From the IMG/VR virus record IMGVR_UViG_3300042558_004148, positions 207,416-271,415 of that record: DNA of 64,000 bases. The stretch is one strand, 5' to 3'. Positions within the stretch are counted from its first letter, which is position 1, and the number at the start of each line of letters is the position of its first letter. The notes beneath the pieces are model-generated. The model worked only from the letters and a program-made list of their open reading frames with translations. It was not told the origin of the DNA and did not search any database. Both the position numbers and the translations under genes were made by a program. Below are positions 2,944 to 49,311 of the stretch, in pieces. The stretch is from a virus.

Positions 2944-4083
2944 ATGGAAAGAAAATTAGCATCAGTACAGAAAGTTAGAGAAATACTCCCAATAGAGGGA
3001 GCGGATGCAATAGAAATTGCAGTTATTAATTCATGGAAGGTTATCACAAAAAAAGGTGAATATCAGCCGGGAGATCTTTGCATTTATTGCGAGATTGATT
3101 CATTTCTCCCAATTAAAGAAGAATTTGAATTTCTCAGAAAGAGCTCGTTTAAAAAGATGGATGGTCAAGAAGGATTCCGCCTTAAAACAATTAGATTGAG
3201 AGGTCAAGTTAGTCAGGGTCTTATATTGCCATTATCAGTTTTAAATGGCGAGGAGGAAATGACTGTTGGTATCAGCCAGCAACCATGGGGAGATCAATTA
3301 CAACTTGGACCTTATGACGATGCACTTGTTATAGAAGAGGGAGCTGATGTTACTGAGATTTTAGGGATAGTCAAGTACGATCCACCAATCCCAGCTCAGC
3401 TTGCAGGTAAGGTTAAAGGTTACTTCCCATCATTCATTCGTAAGACCGACGAGGAAAGGGTTCAAAATCTAACTAATGAATATTTTGGGTGGAAAATACA
3501 ATCAGCTACTCAATTCTACGTTACTGAGAAATTGGACGGAAGCTCTGCAACATTCTATTTCAAGGATGGCGTATTTGGTGTGTGTTCTAGAAATCTAGAA
3601 TTGGCTGAGCCTGAAGCATTCGTTGAAGGTGAAATGGTAATGTGTCAGGATGGTGTTGAACGACCTAAGCAGGAAAATTCCTTCTGGAAAGTTGCTCAGC
3701 ATCTACAACTTGGAGATTGGATGGCAAAACAAGATGCCAACTATGCTATCCAAGGGGAGTTGATTGGCGAAGGAATTCAGGGAAATCCATATAAAATAAA
3801 AGGTCACACCGTTAGATTCTTTAATGCATTCAATATCGATACACAGGAATATCTAGGACTGGATGAATTTGAGGGCTTAATAAAATCAATGGGATTGGAA
3901 ACTGTGCCTATCTTAGATCGTAATTTTCTTCTTCCTAATACAGTTGATGATCTATTGGAATATGCTGACGCAAAATCAGTTTTAAATCCGGATTTCGATA
4001 GAGAGGGAGTCGTTATCAGAAGTCTTGATAGAAAGATTAGCTTCAAAGCTATCTCCAATAAATTCCTATTAAAAGAGAAATAA
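2944..4083 (+). CDS. ATP-dependent RNA ligase (nucleotidyltransferase superfamily)
   Basis: Ligase motif I KxDG (TEKLDGSS), a motif IV-like segment (IQGELIGEG) and a motif V-like segment (YKIKGHTVRF). The N-terminal VQKV..IEGAD...GDLCIYCEIDS stretch is typical of phage Rnl-type ligases. Confidence 0.65.
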   Translation: MERKLASVQKVREILPIEGADAIEIAVINSWKVITKKGEYQPGDLCIYCEIDSFLPIKEEFEFLRKSSFKKMDGQEGFRLKTIRLRGQVSQGLILPLSVLNGEEEMTVGISQQPWGDQLQLGPYDDALVIEEGADVTEILGIVKYDPPIPAQLAGKVKGYFPSFIRKTDEERVQNLTNEYFGWKIQSATQFYVTEKLDGSSATFYFKDGVFGVCSRNLELAEPEAFVEGEMVMCQDGVERPKQENSFWKVAQHLQLGDWMAKQDANYAIQGELIGEGIQGNPYKIKGHTVRFFNAFNIDTQEYLGLDEFEGLIKSMGLETVPILDRNFLLPNTVDDLLEYADAKSVLNPDFDREGVVIRSLDRKISFKAISNKFLLKEK

Positions 4084-4544
4084 TGGGGAGAAATAAAATA
4101 AAGGAGCCATTAGTTAACGAGAGGATAGGAATTCTTCTTAAAGCTAATGGCTTTAATAGAAGTGTTGCTAATTATAATTGGGAATCAGATTCAGAAGGCG
4201 ATATGGTTTTTGAATCGGAGCTTCAGTATCCGAATAATTCCGAATTTACACATAATCCTGAGATTGATCCAGCTATAATTGAATTTGAAAAATGGCAGGA
4301 TTCCCTTATTCCTAGACCTTCACAGGAGGTTGTTAGATACTGGTTATCATCGTATAAATCAATTGAAATTGAAATTGAAATTGATAAAACAGCGGAACCA
4401 AAATATTGTTTCTCCGTTTGGTCTTATTCTGATTTCGGTAACTGGGAAGAAATAAAACAGGATGAGTGGTATTTATACCGGACTCGTCAAGAGGCTATCG
4501 ACGAAGCTATTGAATTAGCTTTAAAAAGCTTACAATACAAATAA
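4083..4544 (+). CDS. hypothetical protein
   Basis: ORF track; contains an in-frame (gaaatt)3 repeat encoding IEIEIEID. Confidence 0.45.
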   Translation: MGRNKIKEPLVNERIGILLKANGFNRSVANYNWESDSEGDMVFESELQYPNNSEFTHNPEIDPAIIEFEKWQDSLIPRPSQEVVRYWLSSYKSIEIEIEIDKTAEPKYCFSVWSYSDFGNWEEIKQDEWYLYRTRQEAIDEAIELALKSLQYK

Positions 4545-4545
4545 A

Positions 4546-5010
4546 TTATCTATTGCCTATTCTTTTCTCTATTTGGGTTTTTGCGTGTTTTATTAGATAT
4601 TCATCAACGTTAGGTATTTTATAAAGGAATTCAAGCTCATATTTATAACAGAGTATTTCCTCTATATTTACATCCATTTTTACGCCGAGCATCTTAATTT
4701 TTAAATGCATGGATTCATGGACCAGAACGGAGCATATGTTATTAATATCACCTATCTTCATATCGGAAGCTGATATAAATATTACTCCTTTACCGTTAGT
4801 TTCTACTAAATTAGTTGAATAACCACCATTCCAAAAGGAAATCTTATAGCAGCTTTTGTCTATAAGGTTATAATATGATGTATCTATGGTATTTATTTTA
4901 TCTAATGCTTTACGAACGTCCTTATCCCAGAAATCACCAGCTTGATCTATTTGTATCTGTGCTGATAAATATACGGGAATAAAAAAGAGAATATAAATTA
5001 TGGATTTCAT
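4546..5010 (-). CDS. secreted HExxH zinc-metallopeptidase-like protein
   Basis: N-terminal signal peptide (MKSIIYILFFIPVYLSAQ) and HExxH (VLVHESMHL). Confidence 0.4.
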   Translation of the reverse strand: MKSIIYILFFIPVYLSAQIQIDQAGDFWDKDVRKALDKINTIDTSYYNLIDKSCYKISFWNGGYSTNLVETNGKGVIFISASDMKIGDINNICSVLVHESMHLKIKMLGVKMDVNIEEILCYKYELEFLYKIPNVDEYLIKHAKTQIEKRIGNR

Positions 5011-5043
5011 GATTTATATATTAAAAAATTAAAATTTAAAAAT

Positions 5044-5589
5044 ATGTCTTTAGAGAAAGAACCTGCTAAAAACAGAAAACCAGTACAGAATAACAGAAAA
5101 CCAAAAAAACCAGTGGCTATCAAAAATATCGCGGATGATATAAGCGATCTTGAGGTTGCTAGAAAAATGATTAAAATATACCAAAGTGCACAGGACAGAA
5201 AACTTGAATTCAATTTAAGCTTTGAATCTGTTAAAAAACTTTTGTCATATCATACATGTTATTATACAAATAGGATATTTGATGAGGATGGTCCATTTTC
5301 AAGAAGTTTTGATCGAATCGATTCAGCAAAAGGATATATCGAAAATAATGTGGTTGCATGTACAGTGGATATAAATGGGAAGAAGAGCAACTTGTCAATG
5401 GAGGAAATAGAATGTCTATATACTAAATTGATAAAATATCACACCAAGAAATCCGATCAGACAATAAAATCTGAAATTTCAAATCCAGTAACTTCCATAG
5501 TATCTGAAATCGTTATATCGAACGAGGAACCAGAAGAAATTCGTGATGGTGAAACATCAGAAGGTACCGCTGAAGTGGAAGATATATAG
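5044..5589 (+). CDS. HNH-family nuclease-like protein (possibly inactive, H->R)
   Basis: CYYTNRIF....SFDRIDSAKGYIENNVVACTVDINGKKSN matches the HNH_3 layout (C..C ... D[H]ID ... N ... N..K), but with DRID in place of DHID. Confidence 0.35.
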   Translation: MSLEKEPAKNRKPVQNNRKPKKPVAIKNIADDISDLEVARKMIKIYQSAQDRKLEFNLSFESVKKLLSYHTCYYTNRIFDEDGPFSRSFDRIDSAKGYIENNVVACTVDINGKKSNLSMEEIECLYTKLIKYHTKKSDQTIKSEISNPVTSIVSEIVISNEEPEEIRDGETSEGTAEVEDI

Positions 5590-5592
5590 TGA

Positions 5593-6444
5593 ATGACTAC
5601 TAAAAAATTTAACAGCTGGCTTACCGAGAATTCCTCGGGTGATACCATGATTGAAATCACTCCGGATATCATTACCAAACTTGAGACCGATACTGGACTT
5701 TCAGAATGGAACAAGAATAAATATTTTAGTAGTGGTCAACCCGCATACAATAGTCAAAATTCATATTCCTCTAGAGGAGCAATTTTATATCAGCAGCCGG
5801 ATAAAAAATTAAGGATCATTATACCATTAATGAAGCCAAGTAATATAAAAAACAATTTTACATCACTTGAGGATTTACTGGAGGTTAATTTGATTCCCGA
5901 TTATATGGCAGGATCTTTTTATATAACAATAGAATTTAGTGAGAATCCCGACATTAAACCAGGATCACTAATAATGGAGGAGGTTAAGAATTGGAACAAC
6001 AGACACAGAATATCTTTCCAGTATAATGCAAAAGATTATAGTGATCTACTTGCTGTCGTAAATAAGGGTCTGGATGAGGCATTCGAATTTCTAAAAGATA
6101 TCAGAATAGTAATACCATCGGATATAAAGAAGATACCCGGGGTTAAAGCATACATGGAGGATAAGGTTAGAGAAATCTATAATAAAATGCTGGAAGAGAT
6201 AAGGGAAACAGGTGATGCTGTGGAAGATATCGACGATAATATATTTGCTCAGCTTATAATAACTATTCTGGAAGAACATCCAAATCTAATGGACGATTTC
6301 AACAACCTACCAGAGAAAGCCAAAGATAAATGGCTTCATGGGGTTAAGGAGATATTTCCTGACGGTAAAATAGAAATAAACAAGAAGTCGATAGACTCAA
6401 TAAAAGCTTTTCTTAACGTTAAAAATTCTTTCTATCTCATATAA
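5593..6444 (+). CDS. hypothetical protein
   Basis: ORF track. Confidence 0.45.
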   Translation: MTTKKFNSWLTENSSGDTMIEITPDIITKLETDTGLSEWNKNKYFSSGQPAYNSQNSYSSRGAILYQQPDKKLRIIIPLMKPSNIKNNFTSLEDLLEVNLIPDYMAGSFYITIEFSENPDIKPGSLIMEEVKNWNNRHRISFQYNAKDYSDLLAVVNKGLDEAFEFLKDIRIVIPSDIKKIPGVKAYMEDKVREIYNKMLEEIRETGDAVEDIDDNIFAQLIITILEEHPNLMDDFNNLPEKAKDKWLHGVKEIFPDGKIEINKKSIDSIKAFLNVKNSFYLI

Positions 6445-6842
6445 TGAAAAATATCAAGGATTATAAAGTTTTTGAATCAACAGAGGAAGAGGAAGGTACT
6501 GAAAGATTAGCTCTCCTTATTGATTATAATAGATCCAGGATACTGAAATTCTTTTCGGATAAAGGCATGGATTCAGACTTCGTTGCTATAGAAGATCCAG
6601 AAGAATTTATAATGGAATACTGGCCGAGATCTCTTGATGGTTCAATATCAAATAGGATATCATATTACATTGACGAATTTAGATCAATTATATCCAAGGA
6701 ACTAAAAACTGGCATAGAATGGAGATTCGGACCGAACGGAAACGTACAGAGACTAATATTTACTCTGGATAGCCCGATATCTCAGGAATACTACGATGGG
6801 ATATTAAAATACATCGAGACCAAAGAAAAATTAAAATATTAG
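6444..6842 (+). CDS. hypothetical protein
   Basis: ORF track; ATGA overlap with the upstream gene. Confidence 0.45.
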   Translation: MKNIKDYKVFESTEEEEGTERLALLIDYNRSRILKFFSDKGMDSDFVAIEDPEEFIMEYWPRSLDGSISNRISYYIDEFRSIISKELKTGIEWRFGPNGNVQRLIFTLDSPISQEYYDGILKYIETKEKLKY

Positions 6843-6843
6843 A

Positions 6844-6873
6844 ATCCGAGAATCCTCTCGGATTTATTTTTTA
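6844..6873 (+). terminator. rho-independent terminator
   Basis: Hairpin ATCCGAGA-atcc-TCTCGGAT followed by TTATTTTTTAT. Confidence 0.55.
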
Positions 6874-6914
6874 TACTGTAACAATTTATCATATTTGCCA
6901 TATAAGATTCAATA
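6862..6914 (+). repeat. direct repeat copy 1 (promoter-containing), upstream of galE
   Basis: ATTTATTTTTTATACTGTAACAATTTATCATATTTGCCATATAAGATTCAATA; about 48/54 identical to copy 2 at 7990..8043. Confidence 0.7.
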
Positions 6915-6944
6915 TATTCCTCGGTAAATAATAAATAAAATAAT

Positions 6945-7967
6945 ATGAAAATACTTGTAACAGGCGGTTTGGGATTTATAGGTTCACATACCGTTGTAGC
7001 TTTACAAAATGAAGGATTTGAAGTTATCGCTGTTGATAATTTATCCAATTCTTCACTTGAAGTTTTAAATGGAATTGAACGAATCACCGGAACAAAACCA
7101 GTATTTGAAAACATCGATTTGCGAGATAAAAGTTCGGTTCAAAATCTCTTCAAAAAATACGAAGAAATCTCCGGTGTTATTCATTTTGCCGCTTCAAAAG
7201 CAGTGGGCGAAAGTGTAGAAAATCCGTTGTTGTATTACGAAAACAACATCAACCCATTGATCTACTTGTTGCAAGAATTACAGAAAAAACCTGCTGCACA
7301 TTTTATTTTTAGTTCGTCTTGCACGGTATACGGTCAATCTGAAAAAATGCCTATTACTGAAGATGCACCAACACAGGTAGCTTTATCACCCTATGGAAAC
7401 ACCAAGCAAATTGGGGAAGAAATCATAACCGATGTGGCAAAAGTTGGTGCTATCAATGCTATATTGTTGCGTTATTTCAATCCGATTGGCGCTCATGAAT
7501 CAGCAGAAATTGGAGAATTGCCACTGGGGGTTCCTCAAAATTTAGTACCATTTATTACACAAACAGCCATTGGAATTCGTGAAAGGTTATCAGTATTTGG
7601 AAACGACTATCCCACAACAGACGGAACCGCGGTTAGAGATTATATTCATGTAGTCGATTTAGCCAAAGCACATGTTGTGGCACTTCAACGATTGTTGCAT
7701 CATCAAAATATTGAAAATGTAGAGATTTTTAATTTAGGTACTGGAAAAGGAAGTTCGGTATTGGAAGTGATCCAGGCGTTTGAAAAAGTGACTGAGCAAA
7801 AATTAAATTACCAAATTGTAGGACGCCGTGAGGGTGATATCACAGAAGCTTACGCAGATACAGGGAAAGCCAACACAGTTTTGGGATGGAAAACCGAATT
7901 ATCACTAGAAGATGCATTAGCCTCAGCTTGGAAATGGGAAAAAAAGATTAGCGAAAATCCTTTATAA
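6945..7967 (+). CDS. galE: UDP-glucose 4-epimerase
   Basis: MKILVTGGLGFIGSH (Rossmann GxxGxxG) and the SDR YxxxK region. Full-length GalE-like at 340 aa. Composition and codon usage are visibly less AT-rich than the surrounding phage genes. Confidence 0.85.
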   Translation: MKILVTGGLGFIGSHTVVALQNEGFEVIAVDNLSNSSLEVLNGIERITGTKPVFENIDLRDKSSVQNLFKKYEEISGVIHFAASKAVGESVENPLLYYENNINPLIYLLQELQKKPAAHFIFSSSCTVYGQSEKMPITEDAPTQVALSPYGNTKQIGEEIITDVAKVGAINAILLRYFNPIGAHESAEIGELPLGVPQNLVPFITQTAIGIRERLSVFGNDYPTTDGTAVRDYIHVVDLAKAHVVALQRLLHHQNIENVEIFNLGTGKGSSVLEVIQAFEKVTEQKLNYQIVGRREGDITEAYADTGKANTVLGWKTELSLEDALASAWKWEKKISENPL

Positions 7968-7989
7968 AAATAAATCTGAACCCCACTGA

Positions 7990-8043
7990 ATTTATTTTTT
8001 TATATCGTAACCATTTATTATATTTGCCATATAAGATTAAATA
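7990..8043 (+). repeat. direct repeat copy 2 (promoter-containing), upstream of smpB
   Basis: ATTTATTTTTTTATATCGTAACCATTTATTATATTTGCCATATAAGATTAAATA; near-identical to copy 1. Confidence 0.7.
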
Positions 8044-8064
8044 CTATATCTTATCAAAGTTAAA

Positions 8065-8508
8065 ATGGCAAAAAAACACGTAAATATTGTAAACCGAAAA
8101 GCTAAATTCGAATATGAATTTATAAGAACCTTAGTTGCAGGTATTCAATTGATGGGATCCGAGGTTAAGTCTATAAGGGACTCAAGAGTTGATTTTTCGG
8201 ATTCGTACTGTTATTTTAATAATGGAGAGTTATACATCAAGAATCTAAGCATCACGCAAATGGATTCGCATTATTCACACGAAGCAAAAAGAGATCGAAA
8301 ACTTCTACTGAAGAAAAGAGAACTAACCAAATTTGAAAAAGATCTGGTTAAGAACATGTCAATAGTTCCGTACAGAATCTTCGAAACTGATAAGGCTATG
8401 CTTAAAATGGAAATAGCTCTAGGAAGGGGTAAAAAACTTTACGATAAGAGGGAGACTATAAAAAATAGGGACATAGAAAGAGACACTCAGAAACAACTTA
8501 AAGGATAA
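8065..8508 (+). CDS. smpB: SsrA-binding protein SmpB
   Basis: NRKAKFEYEF..GIQLMGSEVKSIRDSRVDFSDSYCYF, RDRKLLLKKREL and GRGKKLYDKRETIK align position-by-position with bacterial SmpB. Confidence 0.85.
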   Translation: MAKKHVNIVNRKAKFEYEFIRTLVAGIQLMGSEVKSIRDSRVDFSDSYCYFNNGELYIKNLSITQMDSHYSHEAKRDRKLLLKKRELTKFEKDLVKNMSIVPYRIFETDKAMLKMEIALGRGKKLYDKRETIKNRDIERDTQKQLKG

Positions 8509-8512
8509 GGTC

Positions 8513-9046
8513 ATGGAAAAAATTGAATGGTGCATAGAACAGCACAGAAAAACCAATCACTGGTATGATGAGTATTTGCCGTATGAATTTCATCTAAGAA
8601 TGGTAGCACAAGCGGCTAAAGATTTTATTCATTTGGTACCTGATTCAAATGATGGTGAAACATCATTCCGGGATGATATTATCCTGGCTGCACATGGCCA
8701 CGATTTAATAGAAGATACGAGGGTTTCATATAATGACGTAAGAGAGGTTCTTGGTCACACTCCAGCTGATATCATCTATGCAGTATCTAACGAAAAAGGA
8801 AAGAATCGTAAGGAACGAGCAAACGACAAATATTACGGGGGTATCAGAAATACGCCAGGTGCAGTCTTTGTTAAACTTGCAGATCGAATTGCCAATGTTC
8901 AATATTCTAAGATGACTAAATCAAGAATGTTTGAAATGTACAAAAAGGAAAATGATAATTTCTTAACAAGTCTTGGTTTTGTTGAAGGCCAAGCACATCC
9001 ACTTGGTGAGATGTGTCACTATTTGGAAAATCTATTCATTGATTAA
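8513..9046 (+). CDS. HD-domain (p)ppGpp hydrolase-like protein (small alarmone hydrolase / Mesh1-SpoT type)
   Basis: AAHGHDLIEDT, EVLGHTPADIIYAVS and VKLADRIANV match the SpoT/Mesh1 hydrolase HD motifs (HDxxED ... KLADRLhN). Confidence 0.7.
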   Translation: MEKIEWCIEQHRKTNHWYDEYLPYEFHLRMVAQAAKDFIHLVPDSNDGETSFRDDIILAAHGHDLIEDTRVSYNDVREVLGHTPADIIYAVSNEKGKNRKERANDKYYGGIRNTPGAVFVKLADRIANVQYSKMTKSRMFEMYKKENDNFLTSLGFVEGQAHPLGEMCHYLENLFID

Positions 9047-9068
9047 TAATAAATATTAAAATTAAATT

Positions 9069-9401
9069 ATGAAAAAAGCATTTGTATTTTTATTGGGCTT
9101 ATCTTTAAGCTTATTAATTTCCTGCGAAAAAGAGGGAGTTACACGAAACAAAATAGAAGGAAATGAATCAGGTTTACCACCGGAACTTAAAGGTCTAAAA
9201 ATCTACGACGTATCTATTGGTGGTGGTTCATATGTTAAAGTTGGTGTTTTGGATAATGAGGTGAAAGGACTAACATATAGAGAAGGTAAGCATACCGGAG
9301 CTATTGTTATGGTTCACAAAAATCAAAACCGAGTAATTGAGATCGAAACGATTATTTCAGAAAATGATTCCATCATGGTTATTAAAAAAGCTATCAAGTA
9401 A
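9069..9401 (+). CDS. lipoprotein
   Basis: Signal peptide with lipobox LLISC. Confidence 0.5.
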   Translation: MKKAFVFLLGLSLSLLISCEKEGVTRNKIEGNESGLPPELKGLKIYDVSIGGGSYVKVGVLDNEVKGLTYREGKHTGAIVMVHKNQNRVIEIETIISENDSIMVIKKAIK

Positions 9402-9610
9402 TGGTATCTGCTGATTTCGTAAGAATGATGAGAGAAAGTGATGGTACCCCGAGAAATAAGGAGTATGTTGAACAGCTAGCGAGACAACATCAATATATTC
9501 TTGAATGGGATAAAGGTATTGCATATGCTGAGACCAGATGTGGTTGGAGAGAAGAAATGCAAAGGGACAGAGAAGCGGTAAGAAGAGCAAGAGCTAGAGG
9601 ATGTTGGTAA
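9401..9610 (+). CDS. hypothetical protein
   Basis: ORF track; ATGG overlap. Confidence 0.4.
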   Translation: MVSADFVRMMRESDGTPRNKEYVEQLARQHQYILEWDKGIAYAETRCGWREEMQRDREAVRRARARGCW

Positions 9611-9770
9611 TAGTTGGTAGTTATGAATAGTCAAGAAAAAGATCAAATTTCAATAATCATTATGGTTGCCTTATATGCATTTGCATTAGGGTTTCTTACA
9701 GCATCAGTATTATTGGACGATAGAGAAGTTACCGAGGAGGATATGATAGAATTAAATCAACCACAATATT

Positions 9771-10253
9771 ATGAATAATAATCAACCATGGTTAAGAGCC
9801 AGTATAAAAATAACTAAGCCAATCCTATTAATAGATATGGACGGGGTTATTTGTGATTTTGACAAGAGAGCAAAAGAATTAGAGCAGCAAGGTGTTAAAG
9901 GTCATAGTCTTTTTAGACATCCTGATGCATACAGGGCTTTGGAACCTATAGAAGGTGCTATAGATGCATGGCATGAACTACAGGAAAAATACGAGACGTA
10001 TATCTTAAGCACTCCACCATGGAGCAATCCTGATGCTTGGTCGGAAAAAAGAATCTGGGTTCAACAACATCTAGGAGATTCGGCTAAGAAAAAATTAATC
10101 CTATGTCATAATAAGGGATTAGTTAAGGGTGATTTTCTAATCGACGATAGAATAGCCAACGGTGTTGCAGACTTTGAAGGTGAGCATATTCATTTTGCAA
10201 CCGAGAAATTTCCAGGATGGGAAACAGTATTAGAATATCTTAAATCTAAGTAA
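9771..10253 (+). CDS. HAD-family 5'(3')-deoxyribonucleotidase-like protein
   Basis: Motif I LLIDMDGVICDF and a C-terminal FLIDDR (Asp pair) are typical of NT5C-type HAD nucleotidases. Confidence 0.55.
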   Translation: MNNNQPWLRASIKITKPILLIDMDGVICDFDKRAKELEQQGVKGHSLFRHPDAYRALEPIEGAIDAWHELQEKYETYILSTPPWSNPDAWSEKRIWVQQHLGDSAKKKLILCHNKGLVKGDFLIDDRIANGVADFEGEHIHFATEKFPGWETVLEYLKSK

Positions 10254-10849: not shown

Positions 10850-10882
10850 TTTTTTATCTCCGTCTTTTTTTGTTATATTTGC
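10850..10882 (+). promoter_or_regulatory. phage promoter: upstream element TTTTTTATCTCCGTC plus -7 TATATTTG
   Basis: Matches the recurring element + N9 + TAnnTTTG architecture; about 15 nt before ATG 10897. Confidence 0.55.
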
Positions 10883-10896
10883 TAAAAAATAAAGAT

Positions 10897-11628
10897 ATGT
10901 TTAAATTTTACGAGGTTGGTGGAAAGGTTAGAGACGAGATTTTAGGATTACAGTCTAAAGACGTTGATTATGTTGCAGTTCCGAATGATGCTTTATTAAG
11001 CAAATATAAGGAGGCATATGAAATGTTTCTGTCTCTCGAGAATTATCTTACAACAAATGGATTTGAAATATTCCTATCTACTCCTGATTGCTATACAATT
11101 AGAGCGAAGTTTCCGAAAGACCATGTATATTCAGGCGTAGCGGACTTCGTAATGGCACGAAAAGAAGTTGGTTATGTTACAGGCACAAGAACTCCAATAG
11201 TTAAGCCAGGCACTCTATATGACGATCTAGAGCGAAGAGATTTTACCCTCAATGCTCTTGCTAAGGATGACGATGGAACCATCATAGACTTTTTTAATGG
11301 GATAGACGATCTTAAAGCTGGTGTATTGAAAACACCTCTTGATTGCAAGGTGACATTTGACGACGATCCGCTAAGAATTCTGAGAGCTATTAGATTTTCT
11401 ATAACCAAGGGATTTACCATGACACCACATATGGCCATCGTTATTGATTCCTACAATTATGACGAAAAAATGTCAGTGGTTTCAACCGAGAGAATCAGGG
11501 AGGAATTATATAAATGTTTCAAAGAGAATACATTAGGAACGCTAAGAATTCTTAATGAATTTCCAACTCTAAGAAATTACATTTTTGAAAAAACTGATCT
11601 TTGGTTAAAGCCAACTAACGAAAAATAG
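10897..11628 (+). CDS. tRNA nucleotidyltransferase (CCA-adding enzyme, head domain only)
   Basis: MFKFYEVGGKVRDEILGLQSKDVDYVAV matches the GGxVRD...DxD head motif and RRDFTLNALA matches RRDFTINA. The track start at 10870 is a TTG lying inside the -7 box, so the ATG at 10897 is preferred. Confidence 0.8.
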   Translation: MFKFYEVGGKVRDEILGLQSKDVDYVAVPNDALLSKYKEAYEMFLSLENYLTTNGFEIFLSTPDCYTIRAKFPKDHVYSGVADFVMARKEVGYVTGTRTPIVKPGTLYDDLERRDFTLNALAKDDDGTIIDFFNGIDDLKAGVLKTPLDCKVTFDDDPLRILRAIRFSITKGFTMTPHMAIVIDSYNYDEKMSVVSTERIREELYKCFKENTLGTLRILNEFPTLRNYIFEKTDLWLKPTNEK

Positions 11629-18487: not shown

Positions 18488-18728
18488 CGGAAGTAAATAT
18501 GTGTCGGAATTTCTTCTCAGAAATTCTTTCATGGAGCTGGAGGGAAATACATTTAGCAATGCTCTAAGTACCGTAGTGATACACGATGATCACTACCAAG
18601 TAATCTTCATGTATCCTGATTACAATCTGGGCGATAATGTGGAAATGTTCACTGAATCATTAAATATTTTCCAGTTGGTCGGGATACTGACTTGGTTTGG
18701 TTTAATCGATAGAAACTACTCTAAATAA
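18480..18728 (+). CDS. hypothetical protein
   Basis: ORF track. Confidence 0.4.
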   Translation: MDNGSKYVSEFLLRNSFMELEGNTFSNALSTVVIHDDHYQVIFMYPDYNLGDNVEMFTESLNIFQLVGILTWFGLIDRNYSK

Positions 18729-18931
18729 TGAGACAATTAATTTTAATAGCAATAGCTATACTCTCGATTTCATGTAATGTTGAAATGAGAATAAAAGATC
18801 ACAGTTATACCGATAAATGGCACTATGAGAATGGTAATAGATATCAGGTTTACCAAACTAAAAAAGGTACAAAATACATAATCATTTTAAATAAAAGAGA
18901 AACAAAAATGATTAGAAAGTATATAGATTAA
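18728..18931 (+). CDS. small secreted/lipoprotein-like protein
   Basis: Signal-peptide-like N-terminus ILSISC. Confidence 0.4.
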   Translation: MRQLILIAIAILSISCNVEMRIKDHSYTDKWHYENGNRYQVYQTKKGTKYIIILNKRETKMIRKYID

Positions 18932-19016
18932 TATTTTTAACCCGCATCCGCTAAAATAAATTTATCGGAATTGATGGAAAAGCATTAATGATTTGGATAT
19001 ATAAAATAAAAAAACT

Positions 19017-20054
19017 ATGGATTCAAAATCAGTAATACGATCAATCATAGAAGGAAAGAGCGGGTTACATTTTTCTAAAGGTTGTAAAAAAATGTATAAA
19101 GAACTATATGATGAGATTTGCGAAAATACAAAATTCTTAGATGAGACAAATCCAAGAATAATTGATCGAGCATATCACTACATAAATGGGATAACCGAAT
19201 CTAAAAAATGTATCGAATGTTCAAATCCTATGTCTAGGATTGATTCTACCTTTTGTTCTAAAAAATGCATGGATTCTAGTGAATTCTTAAAAAAGAAAAA
19301 GGAGGAAACAAACTTAAAGAAATTTGGTTCTACAAATGTTTCTAAAACTGATTATTTTAAGGAAAAGTATAAAAATACAATGAATAAAAAATATGGTGTA
19401 GATCATTATTCTAAAACTAAAAGCTATTTAGAAAAGTATAGGGAAACTTCTCTTGAACGATACGGAGAATCGAATCCAGCAAAAAGTGATTTGATAAAAA
19501 AGAAGACTGAAGATACCAATATTGAAAGATATGGAAGTAAAAGTCCTTTGCAAAACCCCGCAATTAAACAAAAAACCATAGAAACTTTGACCTCTAAATA
19601 CAACATCGATCATAATTCTAAAATAGAAGGAAGATATGAAAAAATGAAAGAGAATTCAAATAATAATTTTGGTACCGACCATCCGATGCAAAATGAGGAA
19701 GTTTTTGATAAATGCATGAAAAACTCTTATCGTTTCAAAGAATATAAATTACCCAGTGGTAAAATTGTTAAGGTTCAAGGATATGAGAATTTTGCTTTAG
19801 ATAAATTACTGGAGTCCTATAATGAAAATGATTTGATTATAGGGACTAAAGAGATAAAAACTATTATAGGTAGAATCGAATACTTTTTCGAAGGTGGAAA
19901 AAAAGTATATCATCCTGATATTTACATAGTATCAGAAAATAAAATTGTTGAAGTTAAGTCAGCCTACACGATTAAGCTTGATTTAGAAAAAAACGAAGCT
20001 AAAAGAAAAGCTGTTTTAGATAAAGGAATTAATTTTGAATTTATGATTTTTTAA
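19017..20054 (+). CDS. putative nuclease: Zn-ribbon + six ~23-aa tandem repeats + C-terminal PD-(D/E)xK domain
   Basis: CIECSN...CSKKC zinc ribbon. Repeats of the form K.K.E....K(Y/F)G..(H/N).... x6. C-terminal YHPDIYIV...IVEVKSAY gives D...E.K (restriction-endonuclease-like). Confidence 0.45.
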   Translation: MDSKSVIRSIIEGKSGLHFSKGCKKMYKELYDEICENTKFLDETNPRIIDRAYHYINGITESKKCIECSNPMSRIDSTFCSKKCMDSSEFLKKKKEETNLKKFGSTNVSKTDYFKEKYKNTMNKKYGVDHYSKTKSYLEKYRETSLERYGESNPAKSDLIKKKTEDTNIERYGSKSPLQNPAIKQKTIETLTSKYNIDHNSKIEGRYEKMKENSNNNFGTDHPMQNEEVFDKCMKNSYRFKEYKLPSGKIVKVQGYENFALDKLLESYNENDLIIGTKEIKTIIGRIEYFFEGGKKVYHPDIYIVSENKIVEVKSAYTIKLDLEKNEAKRKAVLDKGINFEFMIF

Positions 20055-20064
20055 TTTTACAAAT

Positions 20065-20922
20065 ATGAAAGACCCAATCGGAGATCGTATGAAATCTTTT
20101 TATGAAGATAGAACTCGATACAAGTTAACAAGAAGAACTTACACAATCATAAGAATTGACGGCAAGTCATTTAGTAATTACACAAAGGGATTAGAAAGAC
20201 CTTTCGACGAAGGACTAATCAATGACATGAATGCTACCACTGCATACCTTTGCAAAAACATTCAAGGAGCTAAATTAGGTTATGTACAATCAGACGAGAT
20301 TAGTTTAGTTCTAACTGACTTCGATGATCTAGGAACACATGCTTGGTTTGATAACAACCTACAGAAAATGGCGTCTGTAGCTGCTTCTATGGCAACAGCT
20401 AAATTTAATGAATTAAGGATTGCTAGAGCTTTTAGACAATATGAATGTCTATTCGATACGCCATTACAGATGAATGCCGATGAGATATTAGAATTTCTAT
20501 CTAAAATCAAGAAAGCTGAGTTTGACGCTAGGGTATTCCAAATCCCTTTTATCGACGAGGTTTGCAACTATTTTATTTGGAGACAACAAGATGCAGTAAG
20601 AAACTCAATTTCTTCGGTTGCACAAAGCCTTTATAGTACAAAAGAACTACATGGGGTTAAGACTGATGGAATGCAAGACCTAATCTTTCAGAAAGGAATC
20701 AATTGGAATGACTATGATTTTCGTAAGAAAAGAGGAGCAGTAATTGGCAAAGTAGAAAAGTTATTTACAAAGACCTCAAATTATTATGATCCTAATACAT
20801 CTTACATCCCGTCTGAACACATTTTTACTAGAAATGTATGGGAAGTTATTGAAACCCCAACGTTCACTCAAGACAAAGATTTTCTTAGAGATATTCTAAA
20901 CAAAGAAATAAAATCAGTTTAA
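20065..20922 (+). CDS. Thg1-like protein (tRNA-His guanylyltransferase family, 3'-5' polymerase)
   Basis: IIRIDGKSFSNYTKGLERPFDE, GYVQSDEISLVL and NNLQKMASVAASMATAKF align with the Thg1/TLP palm-domain motifs (RiDG..F, QSDE). Confidence 0.8.
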   Translation: MKDPIGDRMKSFYEDRTRYKLTRRTYTIIRIDGKSFSNYTKGLERPFDEGLINDMNATTAYLCKNIQGAKLGYVQSDEISLVLTDFDDLGTHAWFDNNLQKMASVAASMATAKFNELRIARAFRQYECLFDTPLQMNADEILEFLSKIKKAEFDARVFQIPFIDEVCNYFIWRQQDAVRNSISSVAQSLYSTKELHGVKTDGMQDLIFQKGINWNDYDFRKKRGAVIGKVEKLFTKTSNYYDPNTSYIPSEHIFTRNVWEVIETPTFTQDKDFLRDILNKEIKSV

Positions 20923-23686: not shown

Positions 23687-24574
23687 ATGTACATCTTAAA
23701 TCTCACGGACAATGAAAAGTCCGACATTAAATTTCAAATCTCAAAATTCCCTGATGGACAGCAATCAGTAACAATCACTGATTGTACAAATGCATCTGAT
23801 ATATCTCATCCCGTAAAAATTAAGTCCCGTCTAAATTCTTTTAAGGATTTAGAACTTATCGTTTGTGCAACACAAGCTTTACGAGATCTTGGTACTAAAG
23901 AAATTCATTTGTATTCTCCTTATTTTGTAGGTGCTCGTTCAGATCGTAAATTCGTTCAAGGATCCACGAACTATCTAAAAAATGTAATCTGTCCTATTAT
24001 CAATTCACAAAATTTCGAATCGGTAAATGTACTTGATCCTCACTCGGACGTACTCGAAGCTTGCTTAAATAATTACGTTAAGGAAGATAATCATCGACTT
24101 GTAAAATTTGCACTACCTCCAATCGATAATAAAGATGGTGCTCAAAGAAGAGTGGTTCTTGTTTCACCTGATGCTGGGGCTTACAAAAAAATCTTTGATG
24201 TTGCTCAGAAATTCGCCATCGAAAATGTGGTTACTGCTATGAAGCATAGGGACATCGAAACTGGGAAAATCACACATACAGAAATTCCTAATATCGATCA
24301 ATATGGTGAAGATCATAAATTTGTAATTGTCGACGATATCTGTGACGGTGGAAGAACCTTCATCGAATTGGCAAAGGAGATCCGTAAACATAACGCGATT
24401 TCTGACATCTATTTAATTGTTACCCATGGAATCTTCTCAGCAGGATTAAAACCACTGAATGATGCATTCACAGGAATATTCTGCACTAATTCATATTCAG
24501 ATGTGAACGATCCTGAATTTAGCCTACGTAACGATAATGAATTACATAGACTAAAGCAACTTAACGTTTTCTAA
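23687..24574 (+). CDS. ribose-phosphate pyrophosphokinase family protein (Prs-like; candidate ADP-ribose pyrophosphokinase)
   Basis: KFPDGQQSV, YSPYFVGARSDRK (cf. PYfgYARQDRK), VLDPHSD, VVLVSPDAGAYKK and FVIVDDICDGGRTF (PRTase loop) track Prs along its whole length. Confidence 0.75.
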   Translation: MYILNLTDNEKSDIKFQISKFPDGQQSVTITDCTNASDISHPVKIKSRLNSFKDLELIVCATQALRDLGTKEIHLYSPYFVGARSDRKFVQGSTNYLKNVICPIINSQNFESVNVLDPHSDVLEACLNNYVKEDNHRLVKFALPPIDNKDGAQRRVVLVSPDAGAYKKIFDVAQKFAIENVVTAMKHRDIETGKITHTEIPNIDQYGEDHKFVIVDDICDGGRTFIELAKEIRKHNAISDIYLIVTHGIFSAGLKPLNDAFTGIFCTNSYSDVNDPEFSLRNDNELHRLKQLNVF

Positions 24575-27940: not shown

Positions 27941-28432
27941 ATGAAAACATACACTAAATACACATTCTTCTATAAAACACGTCACCCGTTCTCCAATTGG
28001 CATCCATGTTCATTTGAGGACGAGGAGGGAAACGAATATAATTGCTCAGAGCAATGGATGATGGCGGAAAAGGCTAAGCTATTTGGCGACGAAGAAACCA
28101 GAGAGGAAATTTTATTCTCAAAGGATCCTGGTAAACAAAAGGAGCTAGGGAGAAAGGTTAAGAATTTCAATTCTGATGTCTGGACAGAAAATGCTAAAAA
28201 AATTGTTTACAATGGATGTCATTTGAAATTCACTCAGAATCCAAAATTACTAAAAACATTATTGGACACCGAAGGAACCTTACTTGTTGAAGCTTCACCC
28301 TACGATAAAATCTGGGGTATAGGTCTTGGCGAGGATGACCCTAAAATACACGATCCTAAAAATTGGAGAGGTACAAATTGGCTAGGCGAAGTTCTAACTG
28401 ATCTTAGAGATAATCTATTAAAATCTAAATAA
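27941..28432 (+). CDS. NADAR (YbiA/DUF1768) domain protein
   Basis: FSNWHPCSF.....YNCSEQWMMAEKAKLF....W......KF.QNP.L...LL.T....LVEASPYDKIWGIG is the NADAR signature. Confidence 0.7.
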   Translation: MKTYTKYTFFYKTRHPFSNWHPCSFEDEEGNEYNCSEQWMMAEKAKLFGDEETREEILFSKDPGKQKELGRKVKNFNSDVWTENAKKIVYNGCHLKFTQNPKLLKTLLDTEGTLLVEASPYDKIWGIGLGEDDPKIHDPKNWRGTNWLGEVLTDLRDNLLKSK

Positions 28433-29247: not shown

Positions 29248-30765
29248 ATGTTTAAACCCACAAGTTTATTTTACACTGATGGCTATAAAATTGGCCACAA
29301 GAAAATGTTAGCTCCCGGAACAACCCGTTTGTACGGTACTTGGATTCCACGAAGCACAAAGCATGCTCCTGAGGGAGTAGATAAAATAGTATCATTCGGT
29401 CAACAATTGGTAGTGAAATGGTTACATGATGAATTCGAAGAGAATTTTTTCAAACAACCAATTAGCGTTGCTACTAAATTTTCCGATGATATGTCAAAGT
29501 ATTTAGGACTTCCGTTCGATGGTTCACACTTCTCGGAATTACATCATCTGGGTTACTTGCCTATTAGAATTAAAGCTTTACCTGAAGGTATCGAAACAAA
29601 CCCTAACATCCCTCACATGACATTTGTGAATACTGTGGATGGATTCGGATGGTTAACATTATATTTGGAGACCATCATATCTTCATTGGCATGGAAACCA
29701 GCAACCTCTGCTACACTTGCACTAAGATACCGAAGAAATTTGGTTGAATGGGTTACGAAAACTGATCCGGCTAACGCTTGGTTAATTCCTTTCCTATGTC
29801 ACGACTTCTCTGCTAGAGGTTTATCTCCATGGGATATGTTATCTAGTGGTTTAGGACACGCTACGTCATTCAGAGGATCTGACACTATTGTTTGTATTCC
29901 TGCAGCACGATACTTCTATAACGAGCCAGAAAACGATGTCTGCATCAATTCTGTTAACGCTTCTGAACACTCAGTATCAACAACAAAGATATTTACTGTA
30001 GGAGAACAACAAATGATCTCCGATTGGTTAACTGAATTCCCTACAGGAATCCTATCAATTGTATCTGACACTTTTGATTTATGGAAACTTATCACGGAAT
30101 ATCTTCCTGCAAATAAAGAGCAAATCATGTCACGTGATGGAAAACTTGTTATCCGTCCTGACTCTGGTGATCCAGTAGATATTATCTGTGGTTCAGTGGA
30201 TGTGTTTAAGCACAATGATCCTAATTCACCACAAAGAAAAGGTGTAGTTGAATTACTTTGGGATATCTTCGGTGGAACAATCAACGAACAAGGATACAAA
30301 GTTCTTGATCCACATATTGGTGCGATCTACGGGGATTCAATCACAGTTGGTCGTCAGATTCAAATCTATGAAAGATTAGAAGAAAAAGGTTTTGCTTCAA
30401 CAAACATCGTGTTGGGAATCGGATCATTCACTTATCAAATGAATACTAGAGATACTTTGGGATTCGCTGCTAAAGGAGCTTGGTTCGAAGTAGAAGAACC
30501 TATATTTGGTGAATTTTTAGACCAAAATCTAAATACTGAAAAGGTTGCTTATGACATCTATAAAGATCCAATCACTGACGACGGAACTAAAAAATCATTG
30601 AAGGGATTAGTTCAAGTTGTAATGGAAGGCGATGAATATCATGTTAATACTCAATGTACTTGGGAACAGGAGGAGCAGGGCTTTTTACAAACAATCTATG
30701 AAGAGGGAAGATTCGTTAACGAAACAACTCTTGAGGAAGTACGTAACAAATTAAATTCTTTATAA
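29248..30765 (+). CDS. nadV: nicotinamide phosphoribosyltransferase family protein (Nampt/NadV-like; candidate nicotinamide ADP-ribose transferase)
   Basis: LFYTDGYKIGHKKMLAPGTTRLYGTWIPRS matches the Nampt N-terminus (tDsYK.tH..yP..t..yS....R). NASEHSVSTT matches AAEHST. Length 505 aa. Confidence 0.75.
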   Translation: MFKPTSLFYTDGYKIGHKKMLAPGTTRLYGTWIPRSTKHAPEGVDKIVSFGQQLVVKWLHDEFEENFFKQPISVATKFSDDMSKYLGLPFDGSHFSELHHLGYLPIRIKALPEGIETNPNIPHMTFVNTVDGFGWLTLYLETIISSLAWKPATSATLALRYRRNLVEWVTKTDPANAWLIPFLCHDFSARGLSPWDMLSSGLGHATSFRGSDTIVCIPAARYFYNEPENDVCINSVNASEHSVSTTKIFTVGEQQMISDWLTEFPTGILSIVSDTFDLWKLITEYLPANKEQIMSRDGKLVIRPDSGDPVDIICGSVDVFKHNDPNSPQRKGVVELLWDIFGGTINEQGYKVLDPHIGAIYGDSITVGRQIQIYERLEEKGFASTNIVLGIGSFTYQMNTRDTLGFAAKGAWFEVEEPIFGEFLDQNLNTEKVAYDIYKDPITDDGTKKSLKGLVQVVMEGDEYHVNTQCTWEQEEQGFLQTIYEEGRFVNETTLEEVRNKLNSL

Positions 30766-33042: not shown

Positions 33043-33663
33043 ATGAACATAAATGTATTTTTTGATAAAATTTTTTATATTAATTTGGATAAGGACACCG
33101 ACAGGGATTCCAAAATGATTGAGCAATTCAAACGATATAACATAACTAACTACGAGCGTGTTTCGGGTACAGTTTGGGAATTGGTTCCTGACATTTCATT
33201 TTGGAGAAATTTCAACCAGGATCAAACAACTGAAAAATACGTTTTGGGCAGTCTCGGATGCAGAAATTCACATTGGAGAATTACTAAAATGGCAATGGAG
33301 AGAGGATATAACAAAATATTAATTTTGGAAGACGATGTTATCTTTACCGAGGACCCACATGAAATTTTAGAGAATAATAAAAATAAATTGGATAATTGGG
33401 ACATGCTTTATTTCGGTGGAGCGGAGGAGGATAATTTCGATGGGCAGATCGTTGGCGCATATGCATATTGTTTAAATAGGAAGTTAATAGAGGAAATATA
33501 TTATATGCTACCAACTTCCGGTATGGAAGTAGATAACTTTTATGCAAAGGTGCTGTTTCATATGAGCTACAATTACAGTAAATCAGGTAGGTATGATATA
33601 AAGAAGATCGAACCTTTTAATACAATCAAAGTCGATTTCGAATTTATCTCAAATATTAGATAA
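33043..33663 (+). CDS. glycosyltransferase family 25 (LPS/LOS-type) protein
   Basis: N-terminal FDKIFYINLDKDTDR matches the GT25 signature (…YvINL……R). Confidence 0.6.
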   Translation: MNINVFFDKIFYINLDKDTDRDSKMIEQFKRYNITNYERVSGTVWELVPDISFWRNFNQDQTTEKYVLGSLGCRNSHWRITKMAMERGYNKILILEDDVIFTEDPHEILENNKNKLDNWDMLYFGGAEEDNFDGQIVGAYAYCLNRKLIEEIYYMLPTSGMEVDNFYAKVLFHMSYNYSKSGRYDIKKIEPFNTIKVDFEFISNIR

Positions 33664-33666
33664 AAT

Positions 33667-34356
33667 ATGGAAACAAACCCTTTTAATTTTTTCGATAAGA
33701 TCTTTTATATCAACCTAGATGATAGGCCTGAAAGAAAGTTACATATTGAAAATGAATTGGAAAAATATGGAATCGTTGCTGAGAGATTTCCAGCAATACA
33801 ATTAACGCAGGAGCAAAACGAGATTTTAAAAAGTGAGGGCTGCATGTTTAAAAAAGATGAAAGACCCGAATACTCAAGATTTGCAAAATCCTGTGCGTTA
33901 TCGCACCTTCATATTATACTAAGATCCAAATTAATGGGATACAAGAACGTTTTAATTCTTGAGGATGATGTTATATTCAGGGAAGATATTTTGGAGGAAT
34001 TAAAAAAATCACTTGATGATTTAGAAAAAGAATCCAGATGGGACATGTTTTATATCGGATGCAATCCATTCCTATATGAGAAGGTAACCGACAATTTATC
34101 AATTTCATTAGGAGCATATGCAGCACACGCATATGCTGTGAATAGTCATTTCTATGATACCATATTAAATATACCATTCAGGATTCTTCCAATTATAGAT
34201 GTGTATTATTATAATCTATCTACGAACCCATTATATAAATTATATATGTCGCCACATAATTTAGCTTGGCAGATACCTAGTTATTCGACTCTGGAGGAGA
34301 TGGACGTTGACTATTATCCAATTATAGAGGAGAGATATAATCTGAATGGAATCTAA
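33667..34356 (+). CDS. glycosyltransferase family 25 protein (tandem paralogue)
   Basis: FFDKIFYINLDDRPERK; LILEDDV shared with the upstream paralogue. Confidence 0.6.
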   Translation: METNPFNFFDKIFYINLDDRPERKLHIENELEKYGIVAERFPAIQLTQEQNEILKSEGCMFKKDERPEYSRFAKSCALSHLHIILRSKLMGYKNVLILEDDVIFREDILEELKKSLDDLEKESRWDMFYIGCNPFLYEKVTDNLSISLGAYAAHAYAVNSHFYDTILNIPFRILPIIDVYYYNLSTNPLYKLYMSPHNLAWQIPSYSTLEEMDVDYYPIIEERYNLNGI

Positions 34357-34381: not shown

Positions 34382-34891
34382 ATGATAACATTAAATAAAC
34401 CAGATGACCAATTTATAACGGAATCCGATTCAATAAAGATATTTCTAGCGGGATCTATCGATATGGGATCTTCAGAAGATTGGCAAACAGAAATATACAA
34501 CCGATTAGTAACAATCGAAGCTGATAATGCAGCAAATATCGAAGTTTATAATCCCAGAAGAGATTCATGGGATAGTACCTGGACACAGGAACAATCAAAT
34601 TCTGAGTTCAATTATCAGGTTAATTGGGAGCTTAATAACATAGAAGACTCAGATATAGTTTTCTTTAATATATTACCAGATTCAAAAAGTCCAATCACAT
34701 TAATGGAACTTGGCCTATGTGCGGGTAAGGAGAAAAAAGCTATAGTTTGCTGTCCTGATGGATTCTACAGAAAGGGAAATGTTGATGTTGTTTGTACAAG
34801 ATATGGTATACAACAATACACAGATATAGATTCGGCATTTGGTGCATTATTAACGGAATTGAATAAAATCGAAAGAAGTAAAATTAAATAA
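34382..34891 (+). CDS. nucleoside 2-deoxyribosyltransferase-like / DNPH1-like protein
   Basis: IKIFLAGSID and SDIVFFNILPDSKSPITLMELGLCAGKEKKAIV match the Nuc_deoxyrib_tr pattern (kiYlAG ... D.GT.fElG.a...gKpv). Confidence 0.45.
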   Translation: MITLNKPDDQFITESDSIKIFLAGSIDMGSSEDWQTEIYNRLVTIEADNAANIEVYNPRRDSWDSTWTQEQSNSEFNYQVNWELNNIEDSDIVFFNILPDSKSPITLMELGLCAGKEKKAIVCCPDGFYRKGNVDVVCTRYGIQQYTDIDSAFGALLTELNKIERSKIK

Positions 34892-34898
34892 AATTAAA

Positions 34899-35804
34899 GT
34901 GATGAAAGCAATAAAAGAAATCGTACAGTATATAGAAACTGATAATCCAACCGGGACATTAAGTATACTGGAGCCAAATTACTCATCCGTAAGTGAGGAA
35001 GGCATATTACCAATACAATTAAACACCAAGAATTTCCATTTGGAAGACCATAGGATCAAATCAGTAATGAACAAAGAAACTATTGCTGATATCATGGCTA
35101 TGCACGGTATAGATTCAAGAGCGATGACAAAAAATACAATCGATAATGAAGCTGAAGTTAACCTAGAGAAAAAAATCTATGGGATGCTAGAAGAATCAGG
35201 AAGAAATAACTACCGAAGTGAATGGAGCAAAACTAGATGGTTCATTTATAATTGGTTGGGTTATTATCCTAAGGTTAGAATATTAGCAACAGAGTCTTCA
35301 CCTGGGAGTCTTTTAAAGCATATACATATAGCAGGAAGTAAAATAGCAAACAAGTCAAGAGGTGGAGGTGCTGATTTTATTATAGTTAGCCAATCAATAG
35401 GATCACTGCTATCGGATCTTAGCCAATTCTCTTTCAATATGGAAGAAGCAACAAATTTCATAGAGAACGGATCATCAATCAGACAAATAGGTGTTCTTGC
35501 TGGAAGATATAGGGTACTTATAAATCCTTTACTTAGTAATGATATAGATCAAACCAGTATTGTAATCGGAGCATCCACAAAAGAAGGACAGGAAGGTGTC
35601 TATCATATTGCTATGCTTCCTACCTATGATGAAATCGAGAACGAAAACTACGCAACTCTAAGAACTGAAATCATCACGGTGAGGTCACAAAGAATGGCAA
35701 CAATAAAAACCAACAACTCTGATTTCAAATACATAACAATTCCGCTTACTAAATCTAGACACAATATAATAACTCACCTATATAAAAAAATATTTAAAAA
35801 ATAA
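34899..35804 (+). CDS. hypothetical protein
   Basis: ORF track. Confidence 0.45.
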   Translation: MMKAIKEIVQYIETDNPTGTLSILEPNYSSVSEEGILPIQLNTKNFHLEDHRIKSVMNKETIADIMAMHGIDSRAMTKNTIDNEAEVNLEKKIYGMLEESGRNNYRSEWSKTRWFIYNWLGYYPKVRILATESSPGSLLKHIHIAGSKIANKSRGGGADFIIVSQSIGSLLSDLSQFSFNMEEATNFIENGSSIRQIGVLAGRYRVLINPLLSNDIDQTSIVIGASTKEGQEGVYHIAMLPTYDEIENENYATLRTEIITVRSQRMATIKTNNSDFKYITIPLTKSRHNIITHLYKKIFKK

Positions 35805-35807
35805 GAG

Positions 35808-49231: not shown

Positions 49232-49311
49232 GGTCCTGGAGCTTAATCTGACGTGGAAGTCAGGTCTGCCTCTAAAACAGATAGCATCGGGTTCGAATCC
49301 TGCTAGGATCA
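49232..49311 (+). tRNA. tRNA-like gene A (80 nt, non-canonical D region), anticodon loop C-U-CUA-A-A (amber-suppressor-like CUA)
   Basis: Acceptor GGTCCTG pairs with TAGGATC (two G.U pairs). T arm CGGG-TTCGAAT-CCTG. Anticodon stem TCTG/CAGA closes the loop CTCTAAA. Discriminator A. No encoded CCA. Confidence 0.45.

Follow-up and report, generated by a model that had tools for sequence, protein, structure and literature searches.

How does a phage come to carry a bacterial sugar epimerase between two copies of one of its own promoter elements, and what did the phage have before? The question is raised by a 64-kb window (positions 207,416 to 271,415 of IMG/VR virus record IMGVR_UViG_3300042558_004148) out of a phage genome of at least 200 kb, in which a gene for UDP-glucose 4-epimerase, galE, is bracketed by a 54-nt direct repeat and followed by smpB. 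The window comes from an uncultured jumbo phage of Flavobacterium, apparently a lytic jumbo myovirus relative. A sequence-only reading had proposed that galE is a moron, acquired from a host by recombination at a duplicated promoter element. Here, we compare the repeat, the gene and the insertion site with their relatives, and find it very probable that a host galE was captured at a phage terminator/promoter element, that this element was duplicated, and that the resident phage galE was most likely replaced.

Two copies of a predicted promoter element around galE

A repeat search and blastn recovered the element at the coordinates originally given for it: the copies at 6862-6914 and 7990-8043 are identical in 48 of 54 alignment columns (88.9%, one gap; blastn), and an ungapped search aligned 48 nt at 90% (6867-6914 with 7996-8043). 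The 19-mer ATATTTGCCATATAAGATT is exact in both copies (6891-6909 and 8020-8038) and occurs nowhere else in the 64 kb; chance predicts 0.08 matches for a shared 19-mer, and the observed count was reached in 0 of 100 shuffles. The shared 20-mer CATATTTGCC of the sequence-only reading is exact in copy 1 but begins in copy 2 with T, not C. The locus is laid out as follows.

6444..6842 (+): 132-aa phage gene upstream of the repeat, anchoring the insertion site on the left
6842..6872 (+): intrinsic terminator closing the upstream operon and contributing the left part of copy 1; hairpin GAATCCGAGAATCCTCTCGGATTT (6842-6865), then a T-run
6862..6914 (+): repeat copy 1, predicted promoter P1 for galE, predicted start near 6902
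6867-6872, 6876-6880 and 6890-6897 (+): copy 1 T-run, CTGTA box and -7 box CATATTTG
6915..6936 (+): 22-nt leader between copy 1 and the host homology
6937..7951 (+): host-homologous DNA segment (blastn against L161, L162 and L163)
6945..7967 (+): galE, intact, 340 aa, UDP-glucose 4-epimerase
7972..7993 (+): decayed hairpin of copy 2, AAATCTGAACCCCACTGAATTT, orthologous to intact hairpins of the related contigs L321 and L001
7990..8043 (+): repeat copy 2, predicted promoter P2 for smpB, predicted start near 8031
7995-8001, 8005-8009 and 8019-8026 (+): copy 2 T-run, TCGTA box and -7 box TATATTTG
8065..8508 (+): smpB (SsrA-binding protein; PF01668, TIGR00086), right anchor of the insertion site

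A profile made from both copies and run over the window brought out a class of 17 promoters, every one on the + strand and just ahead of a + strand open reading frame (ORF). They align without gaps once the final G of the -7 box is taken as the anchor; this base falls at the following positions on the + strand:

2290, 6897, 8026, 10881, 12403, 21691, 25336, 26847, 29228
39200, 42054, 43710, 46560, 49216, 55875, 60498, 63916

Class members consist of a T-run (about -36 to -30), a conserved (A)T(C)CCGTA box (about -26 to -22) and TAnnTTTG/A (-12 to -5). TAnnTTTG is the sigma-A box of Flavobacterium and other Bacteroidota, and occupies position -12 to -5 there as well (PMC9723704). Sigma-70 promoters are not enriched in the window (46 found versus 39.6 ± 6.4 expected). 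To our knowledge the CCGTA box is absent from the host promoter consensus, and it might serve as a target of a phage factor. The class also occurs in the related contigs L001, L006, L008, L022 and L233-L238. Because this box anatomy is common to the class, the repeat represents two members of a phage-wide promoter class rather than a unique sequence.

Within the class, copies 1 and 2 are the most similar of 136 promoter pairs, at 84.5% versus 63.7 ± 4.6% for the other 135 (z = 4.9), and the next best pair reaches 78%. The 12 nt that follow the -7 box (CCATATAAGATT) are identical between the copies and unconserved across the class. Together, the top similarity and the identity beyond the conserved parts establish the two copies as true duplicates. 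From promoter consensus and position, P1 is predicted to drive galE and P2 to drive smpB; copy 1 matches the class profile at E = 8e-6, with a -7 box that starts with C rather than T. A strong hairpin and T-run lie directly upstream of copy 1, and the unit is therefore a terminator and promoter composite. The orthologous elements of L321 and L001 are built alike, with hairpin, T-run and promoter in that order.

Origin and composition of galE

The ORF at 6945-7967 scores 404.5 bits against TIGR01179 (cutoff 262.3) over residues 2-336, matches solved GalE structures from E. coli and others end to end (E ~1e-98), and is recognized by the Pfam models Epimerase and GDP_Man_Dehyd. It shares with the host protein the motifs GGLGFIGS (residues 7-14), SSSCTVYG and YGNTK, which we take to be the NAD-binding GxxGxxG and catalytic Ser...YxxxK motifs of the SDR family. 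The family score and the structure match identify the product as a full-length GalE, predicted to interconvert UDP-glucose and UDP-galactose as opposed to UDP-GlcNAc and UDP-GalNAc.

Its nearest relatives, P0001 and P0002, are proteins of uncultured Flavobacterium with 93% aa identity, and their gene neighbourhoods are bacterial (purK/purE, peptidase M3, KdtA, a DegT-type aminotransferase, galE, gcvP, fabH). Named Flavobacterium species are 75-80% identical (tblastn), and cluster proteins 83-84%. In a neighbour-joining tree the phage GalE is sister to two chromosomal sequences from metagenome-assembled genomes (100/100), within Flavobacterium (98/100). No phage donor was found: the best match to this galE type is 71% among IMG/VR contigs and 59% among GenBank phages. 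On this protein and tree evidence galE is host-derived and its donor clade is Flavobacterium. Acquisition from a host, as first proposed, is thus upheld by the 93% identity to chromosomal GalE, by the nesting in the tree and by the empty site in relatives described below, and the search for a donor clade that had been suggested leads to Flavobacterium, with the nearest GalE in chromosomal context.

Nucleotide similarity to the host galE (84.8%) is limited to 6937-7951, starting 8 nt before the ATG and ending inside codon 336. The last five codons of the phage gene read SENPL* in place of the host's RNK*, and no host downstream DNA was carried along. Import of the host promoter with the gene was considered and ruled out, as the host homology reaches only those 8 nt upstream. 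Comparison with the host genes gives a ratio of nonsynonymous to synonymous substitution (dN/dS) of 0.036, with dS of ~1.0; the low ratio means that the enzyme has been maintained by purifying selection.

The foreign composition that the sequence-only reading ascribed to galE is found in its codons and not in its base content. At 0.377, its GC content is close to the window mean of 0.353 ± 0.025 (z = 1.0), and neither this nor GC at third codon positions (z = -0.5) is an outlier. Among 95 ORFs, in contrast, galE has the second-worst fit to phage codon usage (z = -2.4) and the most host-like log-likelihood ratio of phage versus host usage (z = -3.1). Three codons illustrate the difference.

AGA: phage genes 66%, galE 11%
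ATA: phage genes 42%, galE 14%
TTG: phage genes 12%, galE 42%

AAA and GAA, at 90% each in galE, are near host values. The host's own galE scores further from the phage than the phage copy does, so the codons of the phage galE have been partly ameliorated.

The empty site, a probable resident epimerase and a proposed history of the insertion

When metagenome contigs were scanned for the 19-mer, a closer relative emerged, L321, whose SmpB is 97% and RNA ligase 84% identical to those of the window. At the corresponding site L321 has the ortholog of gene 6444-6842, one hairpin and promoter element, and then smpB, without galE. Its element is ~90% identical to copy 2 and 85% identical to copy 1, and on its right the sequence passes into the smpB leader in the same way as in copy 2. 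The two phages are deeply diverged, with dS of 1.4-2.1 for most genes. In L001, a syntenic 270-kb IMG/VR contig (SmpB 78%), the ortholog of 6444-6842 is followed by a single element, a small ORF (5717-6004; no Pfam match) and smpB, again with no galE. The proposal to look for relatives lacking the insert therefore yielded a true empty site in L321 and, in L001, a site with one element.

The left anchor has no Pfam or NCBIfam match, and has orthologs in all relatives examined (L001, L006, L008, L022, L233-L238 and L321; 33-76% aa identity). A promoter element directly after it is present in the distant L006, L008, L022 and L233-L238 as well, and the cargo that follows differs between the window, L321, L001, L233/L234, L237/L238 and L006/L008/L022. 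As the element is kept while the cargo changes with the lineage, the site is an insertion hot spot. A megablast search of 5000-10000 against GenBank phages (to August 2025) gave no match, and a scan of viral contigs gave no confirmed relative of the neighbouring 283-aa product (5593-6444). On the other side, smpB is directly followed by a gene for an HD-domain protein (8513-9046, +) weakly similar to the RelA/SpoT hydrolase region, and every relative keeps an HD gene of this type beside this hot spot or close to it. ARAGORN and Rfam found no tmRNA partner for SmpB in the window.

The relatives have an epimerase of their own. In each of seven related jumbo-phage contigs (L001/L232 and L233-L238) there is a galE from another lineage, 62-67% identical to the L001 copy and ~45% identical to the window GalE, in a fixed position 3 kb upstream, with the RNA ligase gene on one side and the ortholog of 5044-5589 on the other (1821-2855 in L001; about 5001-6014 in L233-L238). 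These phage-type galEs pass the TIGR01179 equivalog cutoff (340-355 bits) and form their own deep clade in the tree, outside the sampled Bacteroidota GalE. At that position the window has a different gene:

4083..4544 (+): 153-aa ORF between the RNA ligase gene and a minus-strand ORF (4546-5010)

This ORF has no Pfam match; L321 has it too (86% aa identity), likewise without a phage-type galE there. The 64-kb window holds no galE other than that at 6945-7967. Conservation of the phage-type galE among relatives and its absence here indicate that the host gene probably replaced a resident galE, and the event is, judged from gene content, most likely the replacement of a resident epimerase rather than the gain of a new function.

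The two copies of the element have diverged in different parts. The hairpin of copy 1 has a minimum free energy of -13.7 kcal/mol (z = -4.0) and was also called by a terminator scan, and the orthologous hairpin of L001 is comparable (-12.8 kcal/mol, z = -4.4). The hairpin of copy 2 is not significant (-3.1 kcal/mol, z = -1.5): both CCGG arms, as seen in L001 and L321, are now CTGA, and only the T-run is left. Alignment of 7972-7993 with L001 5644-5667 and with L321 (minus strand, ~2640-2665) shows the same two changes in each arm, which destroy the pairing; identical changes in both arms are an odd parallel for which we offer no explanation. The promoters differ the other way. That of copy 2 is ancestral, with a box region one substitution from L321, and that of copy 1 has three derived substitutions relative to L321 and L001, among them a C in place of T where the -7 box begins, a position occupied by T in copy 2, L321, L001 and 15 of the 17 class promoters. 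The copies appear to have specialised, copy 1 as a terminator with a non-consensus -7 box and copy 2 as a consensus promoter without a hairpin.

We propose the following history. The ancestral phage would have had one element of terminator hairpin, T-run and promoter, ending one operon and starting the smpB operon. The ancestor of the window phage and L321 would then have lost the resident galE, and the window lineage would have captured a host galE 3 kb downstream: a piece of Flavobacterium chromosome of ~1.0 kb, reaching from 8 nt ahead of the ATG into codon 336, joined into the element so as to leave ~70-80 nt of element on each side, in the order terminator, P1, galE, decayed terminator, P2, smpB. 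The duplication could have arisen if the host fragment was illegitimately joined to two sister phage genomes, to the right of the element in one and to the left in the other. Alternatively, a circle or fragment already bearing one element could have integrated homologously into the resident element, a route put forward for the promoter-early stem-loop (PeSL) cassettes of T4-type phages (PMC2839356, PMC4122927). Both routes fit the layout of element, gene and element. Two features of the junctions, an apparent microhomology (ATTAGAA) and a seemingly equal leader length of 46 nt in host and phage, were judged coincidental. In the present arrangement the upstream operon would still terminate at 6865-6872, P1, somewhat weakened, would drive galE from a start near 6902, and P2 (start near 8031) would contribute separate smpB transcripts. 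As no effective terminator follows galE, its transcripts probably run on into smpB.

Could the cassette instead have reached the window phage from another phage, already flanked by elements, through homologous recombination of the PeSL kind or by a mini-circle? We grant this a minor but real share of the probability. Integration of a one-element circle into the resident element would give the observed layout (model in PMC2839356), cargo is exchanged at this hot spot in all relatives, and a dS of ~1 to the nearest host allows time spent in another phage; yet no IMG/VR viral contig exceeds 71% and no GenBank phage 60% for this galE type, the codon usage is still host-like, and the nearest relatives are all chromosomal. 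It is unlikely, in our estimate, that the cassette was already in the common ancestor with L321 and was lost from L321 by recombination between the repeats. Direct repeats of ~50 nt do suffice for deletion by T4-type recombination (PMC2839356), and the divergence of the window from L321 is similar to or above the distance between galE and the host. Such a course requires two events in place of one, however, and the distant L001, L233-L238, L006, L008 and L022 all lack galE at the site. The L321 element is also nearer to copy 2 than to copy 1, and to the left of the hairpin L321 fits copy 2 and L001 better, where a deletion product should retain the left part of copy 1. The host origin of galE is unaffected either way.

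That the two copies resemble each other through shared regulatory constraint rather than copying is very improbable. All 17 window promoters have the T-run, CCGTA box and -7 box, and the element before the HD gene in L006 is also fairly similar, but constraint on the class accounts neither for the place of this pair as top outlier of the 136 nor for the identical 12 nt past the -7 box; moreover, the homology runs leftward into the hairpin remnant, and L321 and L001 have one element only. Metagenome assemblies can mis-join at repeats, so host galE reads might have been joined at an AT-rich repeat to produce a chimera. This we regard as practically negligible: L164, assembled independently from a different run, matches at 100% over 1501 nt that include both junctions, the exact GalE protein recurs in 29 indexed collection blocks, of which 16 contain contigs of 0.2-1 Mb, and galE is only 85% identical in nucleotides to the nearest host, with codons partly shifted toward the phage.

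Against capture of a host galE with duplication of the element and replacement of the resident gene stand, besides the possible loss from L321, several further points. The dS of ~1.0 to the nearest sampled host means that the transfer was not recent or that the true donor is unsampled. The exact joints are not placed, since the fillers match nothing available: 6915-6936 and 7952-7976 showed no significant similarity to the host flanks, the end of 6444-6842 or the smpB leader (shuffle p >0.09). A strong adjacent hairpin is present in only 5 of the 17 class promoters, and the composite architecture is therefore not general in the genome. Which promoters are used, where transcripts start and whether they read through are all predicted from consensus. 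With 64 kb seen out of at least 200 kb, a second galE elsewhere is conceivable, which bears on replacement in particular.

Glycosyltransferase genes, known systems and wider meaning

The sequence-only reading also connected galE to two GT25 glycosyltransferase genes, which do exist downstream, 25 kb away:

33043..33663 and 33667..34356 (+): tandem GT25 glycosyltransferases (PF01755, 53 and 60 bits, cutoff 24)

Both matches cover only the N-terminal two thirds of the PF01755 model, and the codon usage of the genes is phage-like. A single-protein scan found no synteny with nine viral-contig GT25 loci, and in a GT25 profile scan none of eight related contigs was among the best 80 of 384 relatives. 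The pair may comprise possible users of UDP-galactose. Independently of GT25, retention across the clade of one galE lineage or the other supports a need for UDP-galactose. We can only tentatively suggest a wider scheme, in which Bacteroidota-type elements act as portable, PeSL-like recombination sites for gene turnover and host-gene capture, and UDP-galactose is vital to these phages, perhaps because the GT25 pair galactosylates a glycan of the phage or of the host surface, or even DNA, so that capture of the host gene made good the lost galE. After the GT25 pair, 34382-36929 (+) encodes a nucleoside 2-deoxyribosyltransferase-like protein, a gp23-like ORF and an M16-family peptidase; the gp23-like ORF is short (300 aa) and matches part of the model for the T4 gp23 major capsid protein.

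Several other features of the window are of interest in their own right. One phage ORF (13819-14679, +) combines a PvuRts1I-like N-terminal nuclease with an SRA domain, the domain arrangement of restriction enzymes that require modified cytosine (5-hydroxymethylcytosine or its glucosylated form). A low-GC island at 18500-20054 (0.27-0.29 versus 0.35) includes an ORF (19017-20054, +) for a DUF7487/TnsA-like endonuclease and looks like a mobile or homing-endonuclease insertion. Genes at 2944-4083 (RNA ligase), 8065-8508 (SmpB), 10870-11628 and 20065-20922 form a toolkit for tRNA and translation repair that also has a CCA-adding/poly(A) polymerase head-domain protein and a Thg1-like tRNA-His guanylyltransferase. 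No tRNA was predicted by ARAGORN in the window; weak matches to the Rfam tRNA model lie on the + strand in ORF-poor stretches at 49239-49311, 51735-51864, 52010-52096 and 52218-52283, two of which (one with a length of 130 nt) exceed the gathering score and two of which fall short of it, and that at 49239-49311 directly follows a class promoter. Genes at 23687-24574, 27941-28432 and 29248-30765 (+), for PRPP-synthase-like, NADAR and NAPRT/NAMPT-like proteins, form a cluster resembling the NAD-salvage island of cultured Flavobacterium jumbophages from boreal freshwater, which carry NAD-salvage genes (PMC13573597); the likeness is one of gene content, not of sequence.

Among known systems, the closest parallel is offered by the PeSL cassettes of T4-type phages (Arbiol, Comeau & Krisch 2010, PMC2839356; Comeau et al. 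2014, PMC4122927). In both, a small terminator stem-loop and a promoter form a composite, and single accessory ORFs lie between two copies of it; copy 1, from the hairpin at 6842-6865 to the promoter end at 6914, has the size of a PeSL-type composite (~50-80 nt). In both, indels between close relatives map to the element, within a hyperplastic region of lineage-specific cargo, and the window phage has a T4 gp23-like gene. The differences are equally clear: the window promoter has the Bacteroidota -7 box TAnnTTTG and a phage-specific CCGTA box whereas PeSL promoters are sigma-70-like, the cargo is a recognisable host enzyme whereas PeSL cargo is ORFan, and the strong hairpin is confined to those five class promoters of the window. 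No sequence relationship to enterobacterial PeSLs is expected or seen.

A moron, in the concept of Hendrix and Juhala for lambdoid and other phages, is an extra gene with its own promoter and terminator that is expressed from the prophage. Like a moron, galE sits between genes that are adjacent in a related phage, with its own predicted promoter and a codon signature unlike that of its neighbours. Unlike one, it is followed by a decayed hairpin, resides in a phage that looks lytic and does not deviate in GC. The description of galE as a moron is apt insofar as the gene is absent between the same flanking genes in L321, and fails in that it has no good terminator of its own.

GalE-like genes are found in 302 GenBank phage records and many IMG/VR contigs. 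Relative to the galEs known as auxiliary metabolic genes of phages, which serve nucleotide-sugar metabolism, the window copy is a separate host-derived lineage that apparently displaced a resident gene; no GenBank phage to August 2025 exceeds 60% protein identity. The locus reveals no new kind of system and, phage-borne galE being common already, is a clean but fairly ordinary case of host-gene capture. Modestly new are the displacement of a resident phage galE by a host gene and the PeSL-like behaviour of Bacteroidota-type promoter cassettes. For a lytic-type jumbo phage the record of capture is unusually complete, with donor clade, empty site, duplicated target and divergence of the copies, and it carries the terminator/promoter cassette as a recombination site beyond the T4-type phages of Proteobacteria, to a Bacteroidota phage whose promoter grammar differs. 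The presence of two unrelated galE lineages in one phage clade indicates that epimerase activity is selected during infection, and, if so, the epimerase points to an unstudied phage glycosylation pathway.

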